A stretch of DNA of 64,000 nucleotides from an uncultured Gemmatimonadales bacterium. Lineage in GTDB: Bacteria > Gemmatimonadota > Gemmatimonadetes > Gemmatimonadales > Gemmatimonadaceae. Below, piece by piece: positions 24,416-35,280 of this stretch. Positions within the stretch are counted from its first letter, which is position 1. Each line of letters starts with the position of its first letter. Under the pieces are notes generated by a model. The model saw only the letters and a program-made list of their open reading frames with translations, was not told the origin of the DNA and ran no database searches. Position numbers and translations under genes: made by a program. The DNA is taken from positions 2,144,001 through 2,208,000 of the forward strand of contig CAWKMU010000003.1 in assembly GCA_963850905.1 (NCBI GenBank), given 5' to 3'.

Positions 24416-25889
24416 GGCAGCGGTTCGACTCGAAGTGTGTCGCCAGACAGGGCGATGACTGCCCGGCTGCTCGCCAGGCGCACGTGCGGTGCAGTGATCA
24501 CCAGGTCGCTGAGGGCGGCCGGTTGCTGCAAAGCGGCGAGCGCAATCGATGTGCCGCCCGCGGTGACCTTCACGCTGTCGGCCGGGCTCAGGAGGGATCG
24601 AAACGTCCCGGTGGAGTCATTGTGGATCGTCGCGATGTTGAGGTCCGCATCGAGCGACTTCCCCGCACACGGATGCACCCAGCGGGTGTGCAATTGCACG
24701 GCGGTCGTCACCTGCAGCACGTTCTGGGGGTCCAGGCCGCAGATACGGAAATCCCGGGCGGGGAGGGAGTCGGCGCTCATGATGAGCTGCACACCTTTGC
24801 CCGACAAATGCTGTCAACCCGCGCCTGGCTGGCGGTCTGGAGTGCCGCAATGTCTCGGACCGCCGCTCCGCGCAGCGCAGTCGCATCGAACCCGGTGGCG
24901 GCCGCGCTGCGCCACGCACGGGCCAGGTCGTCAAAACCGGATGCCACGGCCAGTGCGCCGTCGAGGGTCTCCCGGTGGTGCATGATGTCGTGTTTCCATG
25001 TCGTCGGCGCCAACTCGTCGAGCAGTGCTGCGATCGCAGGACCCGTGCGGTAGTATCGGATCCGGAACGAGCGCTGCCCATCTCGAGTGAGTGCCTCGAG
25101 CGCAGGGCGACGCGCGGCGAGCCGCTCCCGAGCGCCGGCTCGCCAATCGGTCGGTCCGTACGCGGCGATCAGTTGCAGCGCGCGGACGAGCGCATATTCG
25201 GCCAACCCTTCATTCAACTCGCTAGCCCGATCGAACTCCGCGTATTCCGCGTCCAGATCGGCAAGCCGTGCCTCGCGCACCGCCACGAACTCGCGGGCAA
25301 GCTCGCGGCGCCGCGCCTGGGTCGGCGCCACCGTCGCAGCCGCTAATACGCGTCCCTCGAGTGCGAACCCCGCTTCGTTTGTGACATCGAAGACTGGGTA
25401 GCTCGCGACGTAGTATGCGTTCTCGGTCTCGCCGAACCATGTCCCCGGACGGCGCGAAGCGCGCTCGAAAACGTGAAAGGCCTCATGGAAGGCTGTCGGA
25501 ATCAGGTCATCCGGGTCGACCGATGACACTGATACCTGCGCCACCGTCGTGCCTGCGAACACCTCCGACGTGTTTGCCGTAGTTTCGTGGCTGCTATCAC
25601 TCCAGGAGGCCTCCGGCAGACCCTGCACCGCTTCGAAGCCGGCGGGCGGCGCACCGTGCCATCCAACGAGGAGGAATCCCCGGCGCGGCAGCGCAAAGAC
25701 GACCGGGATGGTGTCGGGGCGATAGCCTGGCCACACCGCATTGCCGTACATCCGGCCAAGGCGCGCGGCCTCTGCGGCGGCGCGGGCGATCGTGCGCACG
25801 GTATCCATCGGCACCTGCGCACGCGCCTGTGGCGCAGGGGCAAAGGCGAGCTGCGCGGCGACGAGCAGGGTGACGGTAGGCCGGTGCAT
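24412..25889 (-). CDS. Secreted putative zinc metallopeptidase, gluzincin-like (frameshift near 24807)
   Basis: Signal peptide ..QARA|Q; HEAFH and downstream NEGLAEY; YYRTGP. C-terminal part lies in ORF 24412-24807. Confidence 0.65.
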
Positions 25890-25991
25890 GCGACGGTTCC
25901 TTCCGGTTGCCGAACTTACGTAGCTGCTAGTTAGTCCCACAATGTCCCCGGAACGATTACTCACTCAGATGTGATCTTCGCACCGCTGGAA

Positions 25992-28412
25992 TCAGTCTGC
26001 TCTGAGTGCCACTGCCGGGTCGACGCCGATCGCCCGCTGGGCAGGCAACCATGTAGCAAGGCCTGCAATGCCGAGCAGGATCCCACACACGCCTAAGAGG
26101 ATGACGGGATCAGCGGGCCAAACCTGGTAGAGGAGACTCGTGAGAAATCGGCTCAGCACGAGGGCGCCACCGACTCCTCCCACAAGGCCAAGCACCACGG
26201 GACGTGCGGCCTGTGTGCTGACCAGGCGCAGCACATCGCCGGGGGTCGCCCCCACCGTCATGCGTACGCCGATCTCGCGCGTGCGCTGTGCGACGAATTG
26301 GCGAAGCACGCCGTACAGCCCAGTCGCGGCAAGCAAGAGGGCAAAGATGGCGAAGGCTCCGAGGAGGGTGGCCCGAAACCGCGGATAGGCCAGGAAGAGT
26401 CCGAGACGCGCCTGCATTGTTTCCATCTCGCCAATTGCCGCGCCGCCACCAACATCTTCAATGGCGCGCTGTAATTGAGTCTCAGTCCCGCGAAGCGCAA
26501 CGGAAACGGCCCGCGGTGGGTCCTGGGACAGCGGTTCGAACACCTCTGGTCGCGTCACCCAGCCGATCTGGTGATAGCTGCTGGCAGTCTTCTCGTCTGC
26601 GACGACACCAACGATCGTTCGCCAGGGGTTCGACGGCCCTGCGCCGCCAACGCGTATGCGCTGTCCGATCGGGTCCGTCCCGTGGAAGTAGCCGCGCGCG
26701 ATGGACGCGCCGATGAGGGCGACGGGCTCCGTCGTCGCGCGGTCGCGCCCATCGAACGTGCGCCCCCGAAGCAACGAGATGCCCAACAACTCGAAATACC
26801 CGGGCCCCACTGTCCGCTCTCCGACACTGTAGGCGTCGCTGTCGGCCGTCTGTGTTGCCCCGGCGAGGCGCAGCCCGGCCGAGTTCCCCGCACTGTAGGG
26901 CGGGAGGCTGGTCGCGATGACCGCACGCTCTCCCAGCCGAGAGGCGAGCCGCTCGTAGAAGGCGAGCCGATGGTCGGGGTCCGAATACCGGTCCGCCGGA
27001 AGCACGATCCCCGTGACGGCCAGACCATTGGCGCGGAAGCCAAGCGGTTCCCCACTCATCTTGAAGACGCTCTTCAGCAGCAGCATTGCGCCGACGAGCA
27101 GGACGATCGAAAGGGCCATCTCAGCGGTCACGAGGGATCTGACCAAGTGCCGCGACGGCTTGGAGGCTCCCTCGCGACCGGTGCTTTTCAGCCCGGCCAA
27201 CGCCGCCGCTCGCGATGCTCGCCACGCTGGAAGCAGGCCGAAGACGAGAGCGGACCCAACCGAGGCAAGCAAGGCGAAGGCGAGCACCTGGCTGTTCACG
27301 GTGACGTGCGATCCAATCGGCATTTCAACCGGCGCGCGCGCGTGGAAATAGCGGACGCCCGCAAAGGCGAGCGCCACGCCGATCAGGCCTCCGACCAATG
27401 CCAGCACCAGCGCTTCAGTCAACAACTGCCGGACCATGCGTTGCTCACTGCATCCGAGTGCGACGCGCACGGCCAACTCTCGATGGCGCGCGACCCCCTG
27501 AGCCAGCAACAGGCTCGCAATGTTGAGGCACGCAATCAGCAGCACCAGTCCGACCGCGCCGGCGAGCACCCAGAGCGTGGTCTTGAGCTCGGTCTCCGCA
27601 AGGAAGGTGAACTCTTCCTGGAGGCCGTAGACGACCGGCACGAGATCGCGTTCTCGTCCGTCGGCGCGGTGCAGCGCTGCGTGCAGCGCTGCGACCTCCC
27701 GCTGGGCATCGCTCACGTGCACGCCGTCGCGGAGGCGCGCGAAGATGCCGACGGGGAGGCTGTCTCGTGCCGGCGAAAACCTGGGCGTCAGCAGAACCCA
27801 TAATCCCGTCACGTCGGGATAGAAGGCGAATCCGGGAGGCATGACCCCGACCACCGTGCAGGCCTGATCGTCGAGTGCGATCGCGCTGCCGACCAGGGCG
27901 GGGTCGGCACCGAGCGGTCCGCTCCAGAGGCGGTGGCTCAAGACGACTGCACATCCATCCGTCAGATCTGCAGCCGTGAAGGTTCGGCCGATTGCAGCGG
28001 ATACCCCGAGGAGGGAGAAGAAAGATTCGCTCACCGGCACAGCCAACACCGTTTGAGGGTGGCCGTGTCCGCTGAGCACGCGGCTGTCTACGGCCCACGT
28101 CGCGATCGCGGCGCCATCGAATGCCTTCGCATGTTGAGCGACTTCGCGAAAATCCGCGAAGCTGTCGAAGTTCTTCGAGGTGCCGCTGGCGCGGACATCT
28201 TTGTCCCAGATCGCAACCAGATGGGACGGGTTGCGGTACGGCAGCGGTTGAAGCAGGACACCGTCGATCACACTGAACACGGCGGCGCTCGCGCCGATGC
28301 CGAGCGCCAGGACGATGACCGCGAGGGCAGTCACGCCGCGCCTGCGGGCCATCCCTCGGCTGGCCTGCACGATGTCGTGCCAGAGCCCATCGTAGAAACT
28401 CAGGCTGTGCAC
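25992..28412 (-). CDS. ADOP/MacB-FtsX family ABC permease (806 aa)
   Basis: GTG 28412 after SD GGGGAGA; LALGIGASAAVFSVIDGVLLQPLPY, LLIACLNIASLLLA, QRTREIGVRMTVGA, PAQRAIGVDPAVALR. Confidence 0.92.
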   Translation of the reverse strand: MHSLSFYDGLWHDIVQASRGMARRRGVTALAVIVLALGIGASAAVFSVIDGVLLQPLPYRNPSHLVAIWDKDVRASGTSKNFDSFADFREVAQHAKAFDGAAIATWAVDSRVLSGHGHPQTVLAVPVSESFFSLLGVSAAIGRTFTAADLTDGCAVVLSHRLWSGPLGADPALVGSAIALDDQACTVVGVMPPGFAFYPDVTGLWVLLTPRFSPARDSLPVGIFARLRDGVHVSDAQREVAALHAALHRADGRERDLVPVVYGLQEEFTFLAETELKTTLWVLAGAVGLVLLIACLNIASLLLAQGVARHRELAVRVALGCSEQRMVRQLLTEALVLALVGGLIGVALAFAGVRYFHARAPVEMPIGSHVTVNSQVLAFALLASVGSALVFGLLPAWRASRAAALAGLKSTGREGASKPSRHLVRSLVTAEMALSIVLLVGAMLLLKSVFKMSGEPLGFRANGLAVTGIVLPADRYSDPDHRLAFYERLASRLGERAVIATSLPPYSAGNSAGLRLAGATQTADSDAYSVGERTVGPGYFELLGISLLRGRTFDGRDRATTEPVALIGASIARGYFHGTDPIGQRIRVGGAGPSNPWRTIVGVVADEKTASSYHQIGWVTRPEVFEPLSQDPPRAVSVALRGTETQLQRAIEDVGGGAAIGEMETMQARLGLFLAYPRFRATLLGAFAIFALLLAATGLYGVLRQFVAQRTREIGVRMTVGATPGDVLRLVSTQAARPVVLGLVGGVGGALVLSRFLTSLLYQVWPADPVILLGVCGILLGIAGLATWLPAQRAIGVDPAVALRAD

Positions 28413-28637
28413 GCGATGTCTCCCCACGATTGATGGCCACGCCGGAGCCACCCTTTGTGCCGGCTGCGTTGAGCCAGGCGGCGAGCGCTCAGCCCGAGCG
28501 GCTACTGTACTCGGAGGGGCGGATACCCGCCTGCAATCTGGCGGATCCACCCTGGCTCCGCGCTAGTCAGGTCGGCGTGTGTAGCAGCGGCGCATCAGGG
28601 CAGGGGAGAGCAGACAAAGGCATCGCGTAGCCCTATC

Positions 28638-31556
28638 TTGGCCCGTGTGAACCGGCCCCGCATGGTGGTCGCTCTGGCAGTACTCGCCGGCCTGCCTGTC
28701 GGCCTGTTCGCACAGGACACGGCGAACCGGGTCGCGCGCGCCATCGATCTTGCCGCAGAGCGCGCCGTCGCGAGCGACAGCGTATTGGCGGCCGCCAGCA
28801 AGTGGCGGGCGGCCTTGTTGCGCGATCCGGGCGACCGGTATGCGGCACTTGGTCTGGCAAGTCTCGCCCGACTGACGTCCGACACGACAGCCGACGCTGC
28901 CCTCACGCCACTCGCGGGCGGGTCGGATGCCGTCGCGCGTCGTGCCTCGCTGGACCGAGCCGGGTCGGCGGTGGCGGCGGGGCGAAGGGCGGCGGGGGAT
29001 AGCATGTATGCGCGCGCGGCTGCCGTCGCCTCGGCCGCGCATGATTCGATCGTCGAGGCCGAAGCGCAGTTCGGACGCGCTGATGTGGCTTTTGCGCAGT
29101 TCGCGTTTGCGGCGGCGCGGCCGTTCATTCGCCCCGCCGATTCGGTTCGACCCCCGTTGGATGCGATCCTGGCGGCCACGAGTGCCTGTGTGCAGGCGGC
29201 GCTTCGTCCGTCCGATTCGGCGCTGCGCGCCGCCACCCTCCAGGCGGAGCGCACCGGCAATGCACGACTGGCCGCTCGGTGCCTCGCTCCACTACCCTCG
29301 TTCTTGTTTGGTCAGGGCGAGGAGGATGCGTCGGACCACGCGGGCGCAGAGGTCATCGCTCGCTTGCGTCGCGTGCGGGATCGCGATGCGCTCGGCGTTG
29401 CCCTCATGTTCCAGTGTTACCGGCGCCTCACGCTGCTGGATTACGACGCGAGCGCGGCGTACTGCGGGGACGCGGTCTCCGAAGGTCGAACGTCGCACTC
29501 GCCGTATACTGTCGGATGGGCTGAGCTCAACCTGGGAGCACTCAGCCGCCTCCTCGGAGACGCAGCGGCGGCGCGCGCCCACAATGCGCGAGCGCGTGCG
29601 GCGCTGCTCGCGATCAACGACCAGCATGGATTGGGTATTCTCCGTCGGAACAATGCTGATCTGGCGCTCGACGCCGGTGACACGGCCGCCGCTCGAGCCG
29701 CTGCATTGGAGGCGCTCCACGCTGCGTCGGCGGGCGCGGACGCGGGCGGTGCCTGGAGGAGGCTCGCGGATGTTGCGCTCCGGGAAAACCGATTCGCAGA
29801 AGCGAAACGGGACATCGACAGCGGCGTGGCCGCGGCAGTCCGCGGGCACGCTGAAGTCTTCGTTCCGGCGGCCAAACTTGCGTATGGAACGGTACTGCTC
29901 CGCGAGGGACGTCCCGAAGACGCGTTGACCTGGCTGATCCCGTCAGTGTACGACACCGGTCAACACGTCGCTCGATATCTGATCGAAGAACAGCGCGTCG
30001 AAGCGTTGCTTGCGCTCGGACGACGGAAGGAAGCTCTGACTGAGATGGAGCGTACCACCGATGAGCTCGAGCGCTGGCGAGCGACGCTGAGCGACCGAGA
30101 GCTGCGCGTCCTGGCGTTCCAAACCAGGCCACTGTTTGGCGGACCCAGCCCGGCGATCGCAGCGGTAGTTGCCTCAGCCGTAGCTCAAGGGCAGAGTGAC
30201 CGGGCGTTCGCGCTCGCCGAGCGACGACGGGCTCGCGACCTCGAGGACCAGCGCCGCCGGGCGGCAGTCCTGGGCGGCGGTACGCAGGGCAGCATCGCCC
30301 CGTCGCGCCTTACGTCCCTGACGTCGCTCGCTGCACTCGGTCGCGAGATCCCTGACGACAGCACCGCCGTCATCGAGTACGTCACCGGTCCGGTTGGCGC
30401 GCCCACGACTGTTTTCGTGGTCACACGGCGTTCCACCTCTGCCCGGATCATCGCGCCGGTGGACTCGCTGGCGGATGACATCAGTCTGTTCGATGAACTC
30501 GTCGACCAACGCCAGGACTCGCGCGCCGTCGCACGCACGGTCGGCTCGCGGGTGCTCGGACCGGTCGTGCGCGCCCTGTCGCCGGCGATCGAGAGACTTG
30601 TGATCGTGCCCGACGGCCTGTTGTACCGCATCCCGTTCCCAGCGCTGCGACTGAGCAACGGCACGTACGCGGTGGACCGGTATGCCATCAGCTCCGTACC
30701 GTCGGCAACCGTCGTCGCCGATCTCTGGTCGCATCCGCCCGCAGTTCGTCACGGGCCTGCACGTGTGCTCGCGTTCGGCAATGCAATCCCGGACCCGGGT
30801 GCTGGCGGGACCGCGGAGCGCGGCACTGCCGATGTGAGCGACGACGAGCGCTCAGCAACGCCGGCGGGGTCACCGCTCGTGGAAGTGTTGTCCGAGAGTC
30901 CGTCGGTCGCGAGTAGCCTACCGCGTCTCGAGTGGTCGGGTGACGAAGCGCGCATGGTGGCCGCCTTCGGACGGGAGTCGGTCGTTCGAGTCGGCCGCGA
31001 TGCAACGCCAGCCGCTCTAAAGGAAGCGCCGCTCGACTCGTTCTCCGTAGTGCACTTTGCGACGCATGCTGTGGTCGACGAGCAGGTGCCGGCGCGCAGC
31101 GCGCTGTTGCTGTCGGCCGACACACGCAGCAACGGGATTGTCGATGCTGGTTCGCTGGAGGGGCGACACATAGCGGCCACCCTCGTGGTGTTGTCGGCCT
31201 GCCGGACGGCTCGCGGCGCGTTGGTCGAAGGCGAAGGGGTGCGCGGGCTGGCGAATCCGTTTCTCGGGGCGGGCGCGCACGCCGTGTTGGCCACCCAGTG
31301 GGCGATCGGCGACCGGTCCGCGGTCCCCATGGTCTACGCGATCTATCGGGGGATCGCGGCCGGCCTTCCGGTGGCCGAGGCGCTGCGCCGCGCGGAAGCC
31401 GAGGCCGTTCGCCGCGGCGCGCCGGTGCGGGAATGGGCTGCCTTCGCGCTGATCGGCGACCCGCTTGCACGCGTGGCGCTCGAGACGCCGGCTCCCGATG
31501 CGATCCCCAGTTGGGTCCGTGTGCTCGCTACGGTTTCGGTACCGCGAGGTCGGTGA
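28638..31556 (+). CDS. Exported TPR-CHAT (caspase-like, clan CD) protease
   Basis: Signal peptide ..RPRMVVALAVLAGLPVGLFA|QD; Ala-rich TPR-like helices; AFALAERRRAR; LVIVPDGLLYRIPF; catalytic HFATH (H810) and VLSAC (C855); GEGVRGL..FLGAGA..ATQW; WAAF. Confidence 0.92.
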   Translation: MARVNRPRMVVALAVLAGLPVGLFAQDTANRVARAIDLAAERAVASDSVLAAASKWRAALLRDPGDRYAALGLASLARLTSDTTADAALTPLAGGSDAVARRASLDRAGSAVAAGRRAAGDSMYARAAAVASAAHDSIVEAEAQFGRADVAFAQFAFAAARPFIRPADSVRPPLDAILAATSACVQAALRPSDSALRAATLQAERTGNARLAARCLAPLPSFLFGQGEEDASDHAGAEVIARLRRVRDRDALGVALMFQCYRRLTLLDYDASAAYCGDAVSEGRTSHSPYTVGWAELNLGALSRLLGDAAAARAHNARARAALLAINDQHGLGILRRNNADLALDAGDTAAARAAALEALHAASAGADAGGAWRRLADVALRENRFAEAKRDIDSGVAAAVRGHAEVFVPAAKLAYGTVLLREGRPEDALTWLIPSVYDTGQHVARYLIEEQRVEALLALGRRKEALTEMERTTDELERWRATLSDRELRVLAFQTRPLFGGPSPAIAAVVASAVAQGQSDRAFALAERRRARDLEDQRRRAAVLGGGTQGSIAPSRLTSLTSLAALGREIPDDSTAVIEYVTGPVGAPTTVFVVTRRSTSARIIAPVDSLADDISLFDELVDQRQDSRAVARTVGSRVLGPVVRALSPAIERLVIVPDGLLYRIPFPALRLSNGTYAVDRYAISSVPSATVVADLWSHPPAVRHGPARVLAFGNAIPDPGAGGTAERGTADVSDDERSATPAGSPLVEVLSESPSVASSLPRLEWSGDEARMVAAFGRESVVRVGRDATPAALKEAPLDSFSVVHFATHAVVDEQVPARSALLLSADTRSNGIVDAGSLEGRHIAATLVVLSACRTARGALVEGEGVRGLANPFLGAGAHAVLATQWAIGDRSAVPMVYAIYRGIAAGLPVAEALRRAEAEAVRRGAPVREWAAFALIGDPLARVALETPAPDAIPSWVRVLATVSVPRGR

Positions 31557-32181
31557 ACGCTGACTGCCAGCGTACGCCGGCGGCCTCGCTCGTTGTCACT
31601 CGCCAGCGATATGTGCCTCCGACCGGCAGTGCCGGCCAGGGGAGCGTCGTGTCGGCTGTCCGTGAGCGGGTCACCACGAGGCCGGAGTCGTTCACGACCT
31701 CGAAGAGGTACGATGCAGCCCCCGGCGCCCGATGCCACACGAACAATGGTGTCGCACCCGGTGAGATTGTACCTACGGGCCCGATGACTGCGAGCACGCG
31801 CGTTCCGGTATCGGTCGCGACCCCTCGTTCGGCGTCGTTCGGCCCCGTCGGTCGAAACTGACGGGCTGATTGTCGCGCGATCGTCGGCACGGCGATCGCG
31901 ACGACGATCACCGCAGCGATCGCCAGAGCGGCCCACAGGCCGCGACGTTGCGGTTGCAGCGACTCGCCAGCCCGCGACGTCGCCAGTAACAAATCCAGTT
32001 CTCGCCGGCAGGTGGCGCACGACAGCGCGTGATCGAACACCGCGAGCCGTGCCGCCTCGGGGCCGCGGCCGAGCGCCGCGTCCGCCAGTTGGTCCGCGTC
32101 GGGGTGCGGCGTGTCCGGGGCATTGGCGGCGTGGGCGCCGTAGAGTGCACGGAGCCGGTTGTCCGAGAAGTCGCTCGTCAC
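31528..32181 (-). CDS. Membrane-anchored zf-HC2 anti-sigma factor with extracytoplasmic beta-sandwich domain (217 aa)
   Basis: GTG start overlaps the sigma stop (GTGA); HALSCATC zinc motif; TM GLWAALAIAAVIVVAIAVPTIA; C-domain FVWHRAPGAASYLFEV..YRWRVT. Confidence 0.82.
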   Translation of the reverse strand: MTSDFSDNRLRALYGAHAANAPDTPHPDADQLADAALGRGPEAARLAVFDHALSCATCRRELDLLLATSRAGESLQPQRRGLWAALAIAAVIVVAIAVPTIARQSARQFRPTGPNDAERGVATDTGTRVLAVIGPVGTISPGATPLFVWHRAPGAASYLFEVVNDSGLVVTRSRTADTTLPWPALPVGGTYRWRVTTSEAAGVRWQSAFTDLAVPKP

Positions 32182-32726
32182 GCCGTCCCTCCGGGGCCGA
32201 TCCCGCGCCGCCGCAACTCTTCCCGCAAATCGTCCAGACCTCGATACAGCAGGTTCCGTGTCTTGGCCTCCGACCATCGCAGGTGCTGGGCGATCTCTTC
32301 TCTCGTGTATCCGGAAAGGTACATGCGCACCGGCACGCGGCGGCTTTCCGCGAGGGTGCGGATGGCCGCGGCGACCGCGTGGGCTTCCTCCGAGCGCTCG
32401 AGGCGCTCGGCCGGATCCGCGCTTTCAGGCGCTGCTGGATCGTCCGCGATCTCCTCGAGCGATGCCTGGTTGCGGCGAGCGCGTCGCTCGCGGATCACAT
32501 CGAGCGCCGCTGATATCCCGGCGCGATAGATGTACGAGCTGCCGAGACCGGAGATCGCCTCCGCCTCGCCGTGCGCGCGCCAAAGTCGAAGGCGGAGGTT
32601 CTGCAACACCTCCGCGATCTCATCCTCCGGGACCCCACGCTGCAGCGCGATATGCCGCAGCATGCCGGCGAAGCGTGCGAGGAGAGCATCGAGGGCAGAA
32701 GATATCGGGTCCGTAGCGTCAGGCAC
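32178..32726 (-). CDS. ECF sigma-70 family sigma factor (182 aa)
   Basis: Region 2 EVLQNLRLRLWR..SYIYRAGISAALDVIR; region 4 YLSGYTREEIAQHLRWSEAKTRNLLYRGLDDLR. Confidence 0.9.
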   Translation of the reverse strand: MPDATDPISSALDALLARFAGMLRHIALQRGVPEDEIAEVLQNLRLRLWRAHGEAEAISGLGSSYIYRAGISAALDVIRERRARRNQASLEEIADDPAAPESADPAERLERSEEAHAVAAAIRTLAESRRVPVRMYLSGYTREEIAQHLRWSEAKTRNLLYRGLDDLREELRRRGIGPGGTA

Positions 32727-32787
32727 GGCGGATGGACGAAGACACGGCCGGGCCACAAAGCGGCGGGCCGCGGGGCCGGTGTCGGCA

Positions 32788-32816
32788 AGCGTATCCGCGG
32801 TGCCGGTGACCGTCAA
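32788..32816 (-). promoter_or_regulatory. Sigma70-like promoter for the ECF/anti-sigma operon
   Basis: Minus strand TTGACG-N17-TACGCT, about 60 nt upstream of GTG 32726. Confidence 0.55.
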
Positions 32817-33141
32817 GAGACGCGCTTGCCGCGGCGCCAGGCCGGCAACTCGGCGCAAGCCGCCGCGTGCCACCCCGCGGTCGCGGACAGGTGTGGTGAG
32901 CCAGCGAGTTGATCGTCGAACGCGGTCATCGTCACGACCCCGCGCGGGAGCACGGCCGGGTGGCAGCTACAGAGATTCGATCAGGCTATACGCTCGGACT
33001 CCTCCGTCCTTCTCACTCCGCCGCAAAACGCATGTGAGGACCGTGCGCGGTGAGAATAATTACGACGACACTGCGTACCACTGGGGTCACGTCGAGGCCG
33101 CCACGCGCTCGCATTACGTCTTCAACAAAGAGGTAACTCCC

Positions 33142-35280
33142 GTGTTGCGCAAATCCCGGGTTGCCATTCTGATTGCGCTTGCCGGCCTGTGCGCATGCGG
33201 CAAGAGCTCGACGGCCCCCGCTTCCAACGGTGGGGGCGGGGGCGGCGGTGGAGGAAGCGGAGGGAGCACCACCACCGCCACCTACATCGGAACGGTCGCG
33301 AGCGCCGTTGCCACCGGCTCATTCGCCGCGACCTTCACGACGCCAGCATCGAGCAAGGTCGCCTCCGAGCGGTCCGTGGAGGTCGGCCCATCCGGTCATC
33401 GCATTCGGCTCCGGAGCGGACCGGGTGCGTCCATCACGATCACGCTGCTCAACGGGCAGACGTTGACGCTCACCGGATCGTTGAGCGGTTCTTCCTTCAC
33501 ACTGAACGATAGCAACGGCGATTCGTGTTCGGGCACCCTCGCCAACGTCCTGGCCGCAACTTGCACATTTGCCATCGACCCCGGAGCGTCGATTGGGCTG
33601 ATTGGCGCGCTGCAAATCGAAGGGGCGACCGCGGGCCTCACCACCTATTGCGGACTCGTGCACATCCCTGGCGTCGTCTCGCCCTATGCATCGATGCTGC
33701 TCGGCGTGTCCGGATCGCAGTCGTTCGTCGCCACCATCGGCATCCCCAATAACATTCCCATCTTCTACGCGGGGAGCGTGACCGGCTCGAGCTTCCGGGA
33801 CACGTCGGTCACGCCCCACTTCACTGATTTCTATTCTGGCACTCTCTCGGCGACGACGGCCAGCGGTTTCGACAGCGTGACGACAGCCACCTTGGGGGAC
33901 TTCAGCGCGACGACGCCATGCACACTGACCGCGGCGTCGATCAGTGCCACGAGTGCGACGTTCACCGCCTCCGCCGGTTCGGCGCCGGCGCCGGTCAAGC
34001 TGATCGTTTCGCCGAACACGCTGGGCCCGATGACTGCCGTCGTGCCATCGGGGGCGACCTGGCTCAAAGCCAGCACTGCCTACGATACGCTGATCCTGGC
34101 CCCGGCGTCTCAGCCCACGAGCGGCACGTTCAACACGGCTGTGACGCTGTATCCACAGTTTGCGAGCTCACCTTTGACCGTCAACGTCTCCTATACGGTG
34201 ACGGGCGGCACCGGCGGTGGCGGATCGACGGGGCTCTGGCTCGGCAACAGCGACGGGCAGCTGCTCGAGTTTACGGCCCTGACCGGCCCGACGATTCTAC
34301 CGAGCATCTCCACCGGCACCGGCGGCGCGACCGGCGTTGGCTATCTCGCCGCCGACCAGCAAGGGAACCTGTGGATGTCGTCGGCATTCCGTGGCACGGT
34401 CGACAAACTTCCGCCCTCGAACTTCTCGAGCGGGAGCCCGAGCCTCGATATCCAGATTCCACGGGCGCCCTCCGGCCCGTCGCCCCAGCCCGTGGGGATC
34501 GCATTCGATCACAACGGAACGCTCTGGGTGGCCGACAGCGCGAACAGCGGATGGTTCTACAGCTATACGCAGGCGCAGCTCTCCATGGCGACCCCCACGG
34601 CCAACCCGTTCACGCTCACGGGTGTCGTCACTGGTCCCACCTCGCTCGGTCACCTGAAGCTCGCAGCGGTCGCGTTCGACGCCAACGGCAATCTCTGGCT
34701 GTCCGACGAGGCGTCGTCGCTTGTGTTCGAGGTCCTTGCCGGCCAACTCAATGGCTCGAATGTCGACTTGCAGGCCTTTGGGTTCATTGCCGTCGGTGGC
34801 AACGGCGGCAGTCAGCCGCAATCGATGGCATTCGACGCGCAGGGGAACCTCTGGGTAAGCTTCCTCGGGTTCTCGGCCGGCGGGGCGGTGTACGAGTATG
34901 CGAAGTCAGACTTGAACAACATCCAGCACGATCAGAGTCCATCGCCCCTGGCCGAAGTGCAGATCAACGGGGTGGCCGACTCCATCACTTCGATCGCGTT
35001 CGATCAGGCGGGGAACCTGTGGCTCGTGGAGTCGGCCAAGGCCAACGTCACGACGGCGTTGGCGATGGTGCCGAAGGCGAGTATCGCGGCCGCCGGCACC
35101 TACCAGGTCACGCCGACCGTCACGTACGCCGCGACCACGAACGCGCAACTTCCGACGTCGATAGCGTTCGGTCCGCCGCCGTCGAATCTGCCAATGTACA
35201 GCGTGCCAGGTCGGGGGCCAACGCCTCCAAACGCCTCGCCACTCGCTTCTACGCGGACGATGGTCAGGCGCCGCCCTTAG
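33142..35280 (+). CDS. Large lipoprotein with Ser/Thr-rich beta domains and a C-terminal NHL/Vgb-like beta-propeller (712 aa)
   Basis: SD GAGGT then GTG 33142; VLRKSRVAILIALAGLCAC lipobox; poly-Gly linker; repeats ADQQGNLW, AFDHNGTLW, AFDANGNLW, AFDAQGNLW, AFDQAGNLW. Confidence 0.82.
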   Translation: MLRKSRVAILIALAGLCACGKSSTAPASNGGGGGGGGGSGGSTTTATYIGTVASAVATGSFAATFTTPASSKVASERSVEVGPSGHRIRLRSGPGASITITLLNGQTLTLTGSLSGSSFTLNDSNGDSCSGTLANVLAATCTFAIDPGASIGLIGALQIEGATAGLTTYCGLVHIPGVVSPYASMLLGVSGSQSFVATIGIPNNIPIFYAGSVTGSSFRDTSVTPHFTDFYSGTLSATTASGFDSVTTATLGDFSATTPCTLTAASISATSATFTASAGSAPAPVKLIVSPNTLGPMTAVVPSGATWLKASTAYDTLILAPASQPTSGTFNTAVTLYPQFASSPLTVNVSYTVTGGTGGGGSTGLWLGNSDGQLLEFTALTGPTILPSISTGTGGATGVGYLAADQQGNLWMSSAFRGTVDKLPPSNFSSGSPSLDIQIPRAPSGPSPQPVGIAFDHNGTLWVADSANSGWFYSYTQAQLSMATPTANPFTLTGVVTGPTSLGHLKLAAVAFDANGNLWLSDEASSLVFEVLAGQLNGSNVDLQAFGFIAVGGNGGSQPQSMAFDAQGNLWVSFLGFSAGGAVYEYAKSDLNNIQHDQSPSPLAEVQINGVADSITSIAFDQAGNLWLVESAKANVTTALAMVPKASIAAAGTYQVTPTVTYAATTNAQLPTSIAFGPPPSNLPMYSVPGRGPTPPNASPLASTRTMVRRRP

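Follow-up and report, generated by a model that had tools for sequence, protein, structure and literature searches.

In Myxococcus xanthus the CHAT protease domain of DdvA, in the DdvA/DdvS system, has been proposed to act as a site-1 protease, and cleavage of truncated DdvA by RseP was shown (PMC11506125); in the type III-E Craspase, the TPR-CHAT protein Csx29 cuts the sigma inhibitor Csx30, encoded nearby, and CASP-sigma motifs are found in its own locus (PMC10028731, PMC9729208). Separase cuts unstructured (S/D/E)xExxR sequences (PMC10317155), and HetF, which cuts PatU3, is another CHAT protein with a substrate (PMC9457339). Here we analyze a stretch of 64,000 nucleotides (hereafter the window) from an uncultured Gemmatimonadales bacterium (contig CAWKMU010000003.1, positions 2,144,001 to 2,208,000), in which a TPR-CHAT protein, a membrane anti-sigma factor and a sigma factor of the extracytoplasmic function (ECF) type are encoded together, beside a lipoprotein gene. 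The best reading of this module, by analogy, is a split, likely non-defence version of DdvA/DdvS, in which the CHAT protein probably serves as site-1 protease for its partner anti-sigma factor, cutting after a linker Arg and freeing the sigma factor. A preliminary description of the locus knew of no experimental account; on novelty it needs correcting, since for the fused DdvA/DdvS, a nearer counterpart than Craspase, the same mechanism has been put forward in the literature (PMC11506125). The features of the locus, in window coordinates, are as follows.

28638..31556, + strand: TPR-CHAT protease, predicted exported, 972 amino acids, start TTG 28638 (open reading frame, Pfam and structure model)
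28638..28712, + strand: predicted signal peptide, residues 1-25 (LFA|QD; sequence heuristic and hydrophobic segments of the family)
28713..30272, + strand: helical TPR-like region with predicted disulfides C184/C215 and C260/C276 (structure model, column counts)
30525..31460, + strand: CHAT domain, with H810 at 31065-31067, C855 at 31200-31202 and E770 at 30945-30947
31528..32181, - strand: membrane anti-sigma factor, 217 amino acids, with a zinc-binding anti-sigma (ZAS) motif at 32008-32031, a transmembrane helix at 31876-31932, a linker and an FN3-like domain at about 31537-31797
31822..31836, - strand: predicted cleavage motif [DE]xxR|G, here D116-A-E-R119-G120, in the outer linker of the anti-sigma factor, with a conserved Arg (the bar marks the predicted cut)
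32178..32726, - strand: ECF sigma factor, 182 amino acids (profile search, TIGR02937)
32788..32816, - strand: possible, weak housekeeping promoter of the sigma operon, TTGACG-17-TACGCT, present also in the orthologue of the related genome G002 and not called by a consensus scan
32989..33016, - strand: ECF promoter predicted to read into the sigma/anti-sigma operon, for autoregulation, 24.1 bits, genome rank 2
33050..33077, + strand: predicted ECF promoter facing the lipoprotein gene, about 65 nucleotides before its start, 25.0 bits, genome rank 1
33142..35280, + strand: predicted lipoprotein, 712 amino acids, start GTG 33142, with a lipobox-like Cys19, a beta-rich N-terminal half and an NHL-type propeller at about 34228-35181

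All four genes recognized in the preliminary description are in place, together with the dyad and the 29-nucleotide overlap between the CHAT and anti-sigma genes that it reported. The CHAT gene is convergent with the sigma pair, whose two members overlap by 4 nucleotides; the database copy of the CHAT protein is 964 residues long, which fits an ATG start at 28662, and the sigma factor scores above the TIGR02937 sigma70-ECF cut-off. In what follows, G000 denotes the window's own genome, G001, G002 and G004 related genomes and L numbers the loci compared, which are called type A when they carry the sigma family of the window and type B when they carry a different, longer ECF sigma factor.

The genes for the TPR-CHAT protein, the ZAS anti-sigma factor and the ECF sigma factor constitute a conserved three-gene module in Gemmatimonadota. 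A sample anchored on the anti-sigma factor comprised all 15 non-self matches of one search and 60 of the 83 places of another (duplicates, most truncated matches and the weakest matches were left out, and three duplicate rows were dropped), giving 75 rows. A CHAT gene lay within the fetched locus in 64 of the 71 evaluable loci and, as the window CHAT matches 0 to 7 places per genome across 41 genomes, this linkage is far above chance. Convergent in 27 of the 36 type A rows (upstream in 3, none in 6), the CHAT gene was co-directional in 30 of the 39 type B rows, the others being one convergent arrangement, three fusions, one locus with none and four cut by contig ends. When loci were instead anchored on the sigma factor (80 loci, of which 70 were new and are hereafter called held-out), a convergent CHAT gene was found in 49 of the 62 evaluable held-out loci, 4 having it in another position and 9 having none, while 8 were too short to judge. 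The linkage across genomes that had been put forward as a check on the system is thereby borne out. Among the matches listed, 78 of the 80 sigma loci were titled Gemmatimonadota. A sigma locus with an anti-sigma gene and promoter sites was also seen on a contig titled Myxococcaceae (L253), through either transfer or mis-binning.

In a profile survey of 251 genomes of the phylum, the TPR region of the CHAT protein was found in 21 and the sigma factor in 30, and all 21 were within the 30. Seven of the nine sigma-only genomes carry an anti-sigma factor of 69-82 residues, reduced to a soluble zinc domain with no transmembrane helix, linker or FN3 domain; as the seven belong to one genus, they are counted as one event of co-loss. 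Of the other two, one has no anti-sigma gene beside the sigma gene and one has no called gene. In this genus (L034, L129-L134, L075:9381-9626), which mostly has no CHAT gene with the sigma factor and its zinc-domain-only partner, the sigma factor may respond to a different, cytoplasmic signal.

Natural fusions of about 1280 residues, with the order ZAS, transmembrane helix, FN3 and TPR-CHAT, occur in three genomes of three genera (L100:4220-8098, L106:5699-9526, L117:4055-7912) and align over the whole anti-sigma factor with an hhalign probability of 97.9%; all three have Tyr at the position of the catalytic His, and the single-sequence fold of a natural fusion reached a pLDDT of only 39.9, too low to be informative. 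Distances between cognate sigma, anti-sigma and CHAT sequences are correlated in 26 cassettes (Spearman 0.57-0.61), which kinship alone could produce, and the paralogous cassettes of G000 and of G002 pair gene for gene, indicating co-duplication. The second complete cassette of G000 (L001:6290-10561; G000:C3, about 1090.3-1094.6 kb) has the same convergent layout, flanked by SDR and MarR genes; its sigma factor and CHAT domain are 46-50% identical to those of the window, and in G004 the CHAT gene of the orthologous cassette carries a frameshift (L024). G000 further holds a C-terminal CHAT remnant 25 kb before the window (L003:8594-9070; G000:C3:2118536-2119033), intact in G001 and G004 (L141, L143), and an intact orphan CHAT gene behind a lipoprotein gene (L002:6592-9639).

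The window CHAT protein is a member of the CHAT family (clan CD) with an intact dyad, and proteolytic activity is predicted for it. Residues 630-941 match Pfam CHAT (PF12770; E 8e-55, 186.7 bits vs. a cut-off of 24), H810 in HFATH and C855 in LSAC stand at the ends of two core strands, and profile alignment sets them on the dyads of DdvA and Csx29. The structure model of the 972-residue protein (mean pLDDT 89.7, pTM 0.87), in which the loop following C855 is of low confidence, shows helical repeats at about residues 26-545, and its top matches are DdvA, separase and Csx29. The Pfam TPR models gave no match to the window sequence itself, nor did phmmer with this sequence alone against PDB sequences; the family profile matches TPR structures. 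The catalytic Cys is kept in 67 of 67 related CHAT proteins, and the His in all 31 CHAT proteins of type A and in 2 orphans, besides 46 of 49 held-out proteins by a crude pattern, in line with the intact dyad noted in the preliminary description. The residue after the catalytic His, where Gly is usual, is Ala in the window (Ala in 34 and Gly in 31 of 67 family members).

Both the CHAT protein and the FN3 domain of the anti-sigma factor are predicted, with strong indirect support, to be located outside the inner membrane, as had been supposed for the former. An N-terminal hydrophobic segment was present in 55 of 67 full-length CHAT proteins, whereas the sigma controls had one in 2 of 36 cases and internal stretches of sequence gave 1-16 of 67; several of the 12 proteins without it have truncated start calls. 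The cysteines C184 and C215 occur either both (37) or not at all (19) in 56 ungapped rows, and the same is true of C260 and C276 (6 and 61, respectively, in 67 rows), single residues never being observed. As disulfides are expected in an oxidizing compartment, the paired-only cysteines and the hydrophobic N-termini together support export. Many of the related CHAT proteins also have a C-terminal hydrophobic tail, which the window protein lacks.

The anti-sigma factor has a zinc motif (H51-x3-C55-x2-C58) N-terminal of one hydrophobic helix (residues 84-102), and its gene is directly downstream of that of an ECF sigma factor, as in class I ZAS proteins. Since a Pfam scan of the window protein alone gave no match, its architecture rests on the family: zf-HC2 is matched by 35 of 69 members, and the family profile matches RslA, ChrR and the ZAS domain of DdvA in the N-terminal part and FN3 domains in the C-terminal part. 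Against a 50%-representative library, all of the 150 matches listed for this profile were long FN3-repeat proteins, confirming only the FN3-like domain, and a search for related loci with the window anti-sigma factor as query found none. Judging from gene order and family, the protein would bind and inhibit its cognate sigma factor.

The linker between the transmembrane helix and the FN3 domain is variable except for R119, which is Arg in 73 of 73 aligned rows, while Arg was aligned in only 12-54 rows in 50 trials with shuffled linkers. In 118 held-out homologues, lying outside the 73-row set but found with a profile that included the Arg position, Arg was present in 118, with Asp or Glu as the P4 residue in 100 and Gly as the P1' residue in 100, as compared to a mean of 22% for the other linker columns. 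R119 within [DE]xxR|G is the predicted cleavage site of the anti-sigma factor. On the side of the enzyme, E770, part of the helix that follows the first of the core strands, is invariant in 67 of 67 CHAT proteins; at this place MALT1, gingipain R and metacaspase have the acid for a basic P1 residue (PMC4357240), and by clan CD topology E770 is a candidate S1 acid for the P1 Arg. The pair D892-R893, considered as counterpart of the S1/S4 pair of separase, was rejected because the published mapping places D2151 four residues later. Near one type A cassette, a 130-residue lipoprotein made up solely of an anti-sigma-type FN3 domain is encoded (L145:10318-10710), possibly a decoy or modulator.

The promoter motif predicted for the sigma factor, GTGAGAA-N16-(G/C)CGT(A/C), came to light in the upstream regions of 35 type A sigma genes, the window's included, and its CGT(A/C) element resembles ECF -10 boxes. 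There were 29 strict matches in the type A loci (560 kb) vs. 5 in the type B loci (497 kb). When a matrix trained on 22 sites, all from other genomes, was run over the 4.49 Mb of G000, the two sites in the gap between the sigma and lipoprotein genes ranked first (25.0 bits) and second (24.1 bits), followed by a score of 19.0; with the 16-nucleotide spacer they were the only sites above 21 bits, and with a spacer one base shorter two other sites reached 22-23 bits, both within called genes. G002 has only two matches to the pattern genome-wide, both in the orthologous gap and in the same orientations as in the window. The 70 held-out loci contained 34 matches vs. 0.93 expected, 28 of them intergenic, and most of these sites precede proteins with signal- or lipoprotein-like N-termini. 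Only one of the 34 is directed at the CHAT gene, which would make CHAT a standing sensor rather than an output. Sites of at least 19 bits were present in 15 of 34 type A loci, and most of these 15 had supplied training sites. In G000 the paralogous cassette has no upstream promoter site, and none is predicted before either the paralogue of the lipoprotein gene (L004) or the intact orphan CHAT gene (L002). A genome-wide regulon was rejected, given that 10 genomes with the sigma factor had 2-5 strict matches each and 5 genomes without it 0-2, and those outside cassettes could not be separated from chance. The sigma factor is thus predicted, with held-out support, to read this motif and to drive a small local set of genes for exported proteins.

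A copy of the motif, facing the anti-sigma gene, also lies inside the coding sequence of the sigma factor; 26 of the 36 type A genes have it, as do 56 of the 70 held-out ones (for instance L001:9989-10561, L086:6922-7449 and L097:6683-7210), and the window sigma gene (32178-32726) has none. The codon supplying the T of the motif has T as its last base in 27 of 36 genes vs. 26 of 217 comparable codons, a strong synonymous-codon bias pointing to selection on the DNA, and an upstream, self-facing site of at least 14 bits accompanies 5 of the 10 genes lacking the internal copy vs. 1 of the 26 having it. The internal copy is predicted to be a hidden feedback promoter that restocks the anti-sigma factor, the window using its upstream site instead.

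The window lipoprotein contains NHL/Reg_prop propeller repeats (Pfam), and a structure-atlas search with its N-terminal half (best score 0.87) returned BACON/Ig-like domains as leads only. Since the best-ranked promoter faces its gene, and considering the sites of G002 and the held-out matches, the lipoprotein is the likely target gene, although a variable part of the module. The preliminary description had regarded it as a target gene and/or ligand and as one of four components: the first of these roles gains support, that of fixed fourth component was rejected and that of ligand is not supported, as an orthologue is linked only in G002, of the same genus, and a MarR gene is at its place in the second cassette of G000. 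The class is nonetheless recurrent, because type B operons mostly end, after CHAT, with a variable lipoprotein of Ig-like and propeller domains. A full-length paralogue, 42% identical, is encoded about 57 kb from the second cassette (L004:5017-7317; G000:C3, about 1151-1153 kb), and both chains end C-terminally in a basic tail.

Around the module, Pfam and profile scans identified the lipoprotein, an ADOP permease, a cyclophilin and a TonB receptor as neighbours. The permease gene, of the ADOP-family duplicated type (window 25992-28550, - strand), is divergent from CHAT across a gap of 87 nucleotides, is followed by a gene for a 395-residue protein with no family match (24777-25964, - strand) and is absent from the orthologous locus of G002. 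Ser/Thr kinase genes adjoin some type A cassettes (L069:4361-6289, L073:5579-7315, L077:8646-11339, L083:8241-10883), two of them confirmed by Pfam.

The sequences contain the three genes, their linkage, their co-inheritance and natural fusions of anti-sigma factor and CHAT, and from these the following course of events may be proposed. With CHAT and the FN3 domain both predicted outside the inner membrane, an extracytoplasmic ligand, probably a protein or peptide, would bind the TPR superhelix and order the active site; CHAT would then cut the anti-sigma factor after R119 (DAER|G), some 17 residues from the membrane on its outer side, removing the FN3 cap. On the model of DdvA, the stub would next be destroyed by an RseP-like protease and then by cytoplasmic proteases, and the freed sigma factor is predicted to transcribe the lipoprotein gene and its own operon from the shared motif. 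The reset would come from restocking of the anti-sigma factor, through the promoter inside the sigma gene in most relatives and through the upstream site in the window. The role of site-1 protease, already assigned to CHAT in the preliminary description, has gained a specific predicted cut site, and the role itself we still infer.

Several observations weigh against this mechanism. The principal one, as regards a purely catalytic interpretation, is that 17 of the 30 co-directional type B CHAT proteins and 3 of 3 fusions have, instead of the catalytic His, a Tyr, Phe, Asn, Leu or Val; the anti-sigma factors paired with such His-less proteins still keep the linker Arg, which may therefore be a docking residue and not a cut site. 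The position matching separase D2151, traced through the published equivalence of D2151 with Csx29 K670 (PMC9729208) and the profile alignment, is the non-acidic V896 (Ala in 38 and Val in 20 of 67), so the case for Arg specificity stands on the topology of E770 alone. The best RseP-like M50 gene of G000 (C3:2649630-2650820) is split, with HEFGH and NLLPIPILDG in different frames, a break that is either an assembly error or real, and the self-cleavage of DdvA is itself a hypothesis (PMC11506125). Furthermore, at five type A loci the anti-sigma factor is full but no CHAT gene is nearby, many close CHAT proteins have no sigma gene nearby, and the counts overstate independence because the genomes are related.

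The same observations lend themselves to another view, in which CHAT is a receptor or protective cap, comparable to RseB, that holds the linker Arg as a pseudo-substrate until a ligand releases the linker to another protease. The 20 of 67 related CHAT proteins without catalytic His, whose partners keep the Arg, would be explained in this way, and there are precedents in the gingipain prodomain, which docks an inhibitory Arg in S1 (PMC4357240), and in DdvA, whose TPR-CHAT part shields it from RseP and in which, as long as the cells were unstimulated, mutating the dyad gave no phenotype (PMC11506125). However, the conservation of both His and Cys in 31 of 31 type A proteins, and of Cys in 67 of 67, together with a small P1' and an acidic P4 residue that resemble a cut site, make a receptor of this kind rather unlikely for the window. 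Whatever the cutting mechanism, an anti-phage alarm like DdvA/DdvS appears less likely still: although the closest characterized relatives, DdvA and Csx29, act in defence (PMC11506125, PMC10028731), the flanking and promoter-linked genes encode exported surface-type proteins (Ig-like, propeller or PEP-CTERM) or have housekeeping functions, PADLOC gave only weak domain-level matches, to 8 window proteins and none meaningful, and no Cas1 was found in the 82%-complete G000, in keeping with the CRISPR independence first suggested. We consider it least probable that CHAT is a co-inherited effector processing exported proteins while another Arg-specific envelope protease cuts the anti-sigma factor, since, common as close CHAT genes with no adjoining sigma gene are, among them L002, L135 and L142, which directly follow a lipoprotein gene, and usual as the variable lipoprotein is after CHAT in type B operons, anti-sigma/CHAT fusions exist, CHAT is lost together with the outer part of the anti-sigma factor, and a promoter faces the CHAT gene in 1 of 34 held-out sites only.

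Site-1 cleavage by CHAT thus being the preferred reading, a broader and more tentative one, to which we give somewhat less than even chances, would see in the periplasmic separase-like CHAT proteins of Gemmatimonadota a widespread, CRISPR-free class of interchangeable receptors, which sense an outside protein or peptide, cut [DE]xxR|G in an FN3-capped anti-sigma factor and switch on a local set of variable adhesin-like surface proteins, with the internal promoter as reset and orphan CHAT proteins possibly sharing an anti-sigma factor. If true, a site-1 protease of clan CD, dedicated to that task and with a defined substrate motif, would be described for the first time, and substrate recognition by separase would have a bacterial counterpart.

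Few bacterial TPR-CHAT proteases have, to our knowledge, an established substrate. The split module separates enzyme, substrate and read-out and names R119, C855 and a 28-bp promoter, and with a cut site, a mutant and a promoter thus designated the question becomes testable without the natural signal. New elements, at the level of sequence prediction, are the separase-like [DE]xxR|G motif with its invariant Arg in the anti-sigma linker, the predicted promoter whose two best genome sites face the lipoprotein and sigma genes, and the promoter copy hidden inside most type A sigma genes. A phylum that is largely uncultured would thereby gain a first regulatory circuit for its variable surface lipoproteins of the Ig/propeller kind, and the internal copies are an example of selection maintaining a predicted promoter within coding sequence.

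Our literature search found no paper on a split CHAT/anti-sigma module, subscription papers being mostly outside the search and the ECF supplement seen in part, so that a brief mention may exist. Among described systems, ECF54 resembles the module in pairing an ECF sigma factor with a TPR-CHAT gene in a conserved neighbourhood; it differs in being actinobacterial and in having subtilase and carboxypeptidase-regulatory genes and no anti-sigma factor, which the window possesses (PMC7826278, PMC8999054). Csx29 is a structural match of the window CHAT (Z 28.1, root-mean-square deviation 8.8 over 523 residues), but Craspase is cytoplasmic, is triggered by RNA via Cas7-11 and cuts a soluble substrate after Met/Leu, and none of Cas7-11, Csx30 and Csx31 was found among the neighbours scanned at the locus. 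Separase (clan CD, C50) shares the build of TPR-like region and CHAT-type domain, its protease domain matching the window model with Z 25.9 and a root-mean-square deviation of 3.2 over 308 residues, and its ExxR motif resembles [DE]xxR|G; the aspartate that reads its P1 Arg (D2151 in C. thermophilum) is not conserved in the window family, and location and substrate are unrelated. Regulated intramembrane proteolysis has a further parallel in PrsW-RsiW. As in DegS-RseA-RseP and RsiW, a first cut outside the membrane and a second within it would precede sigma release (PMC10028731), and unlike DegS and PrsW the site-1 enzyme predicted here belongs to the clan CD cysteine proteases, has a TPR sensor and is dedicated to one cassette.

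The closest counterpart is DdvA/DdvS, with the same set of ECF sigma factor, cytoplasmic ZAS domain, one transmembrane helix, linker and periplasmic TPR-CHAT (PMC11506125); DdvA is the top Foldseek match of the window CHAT (E 1e-15), and its ZAS domain is matched by the anti-sigma profile. In the window, by contrast, CHAT is a separate, convergent gene with its own predicted signal peptide, fused only in three relatives, the anti-sigma factor is a protein of 217 residues ending in an FN3-like cap, and the neighbours are genes for surface proteins, as compared to the CBASS/CRISPR island of DdvA. The Gemmatimonadota fusions, for their part, differ from DdvA in keeping the FN3 domain and lacking the catalytic His.

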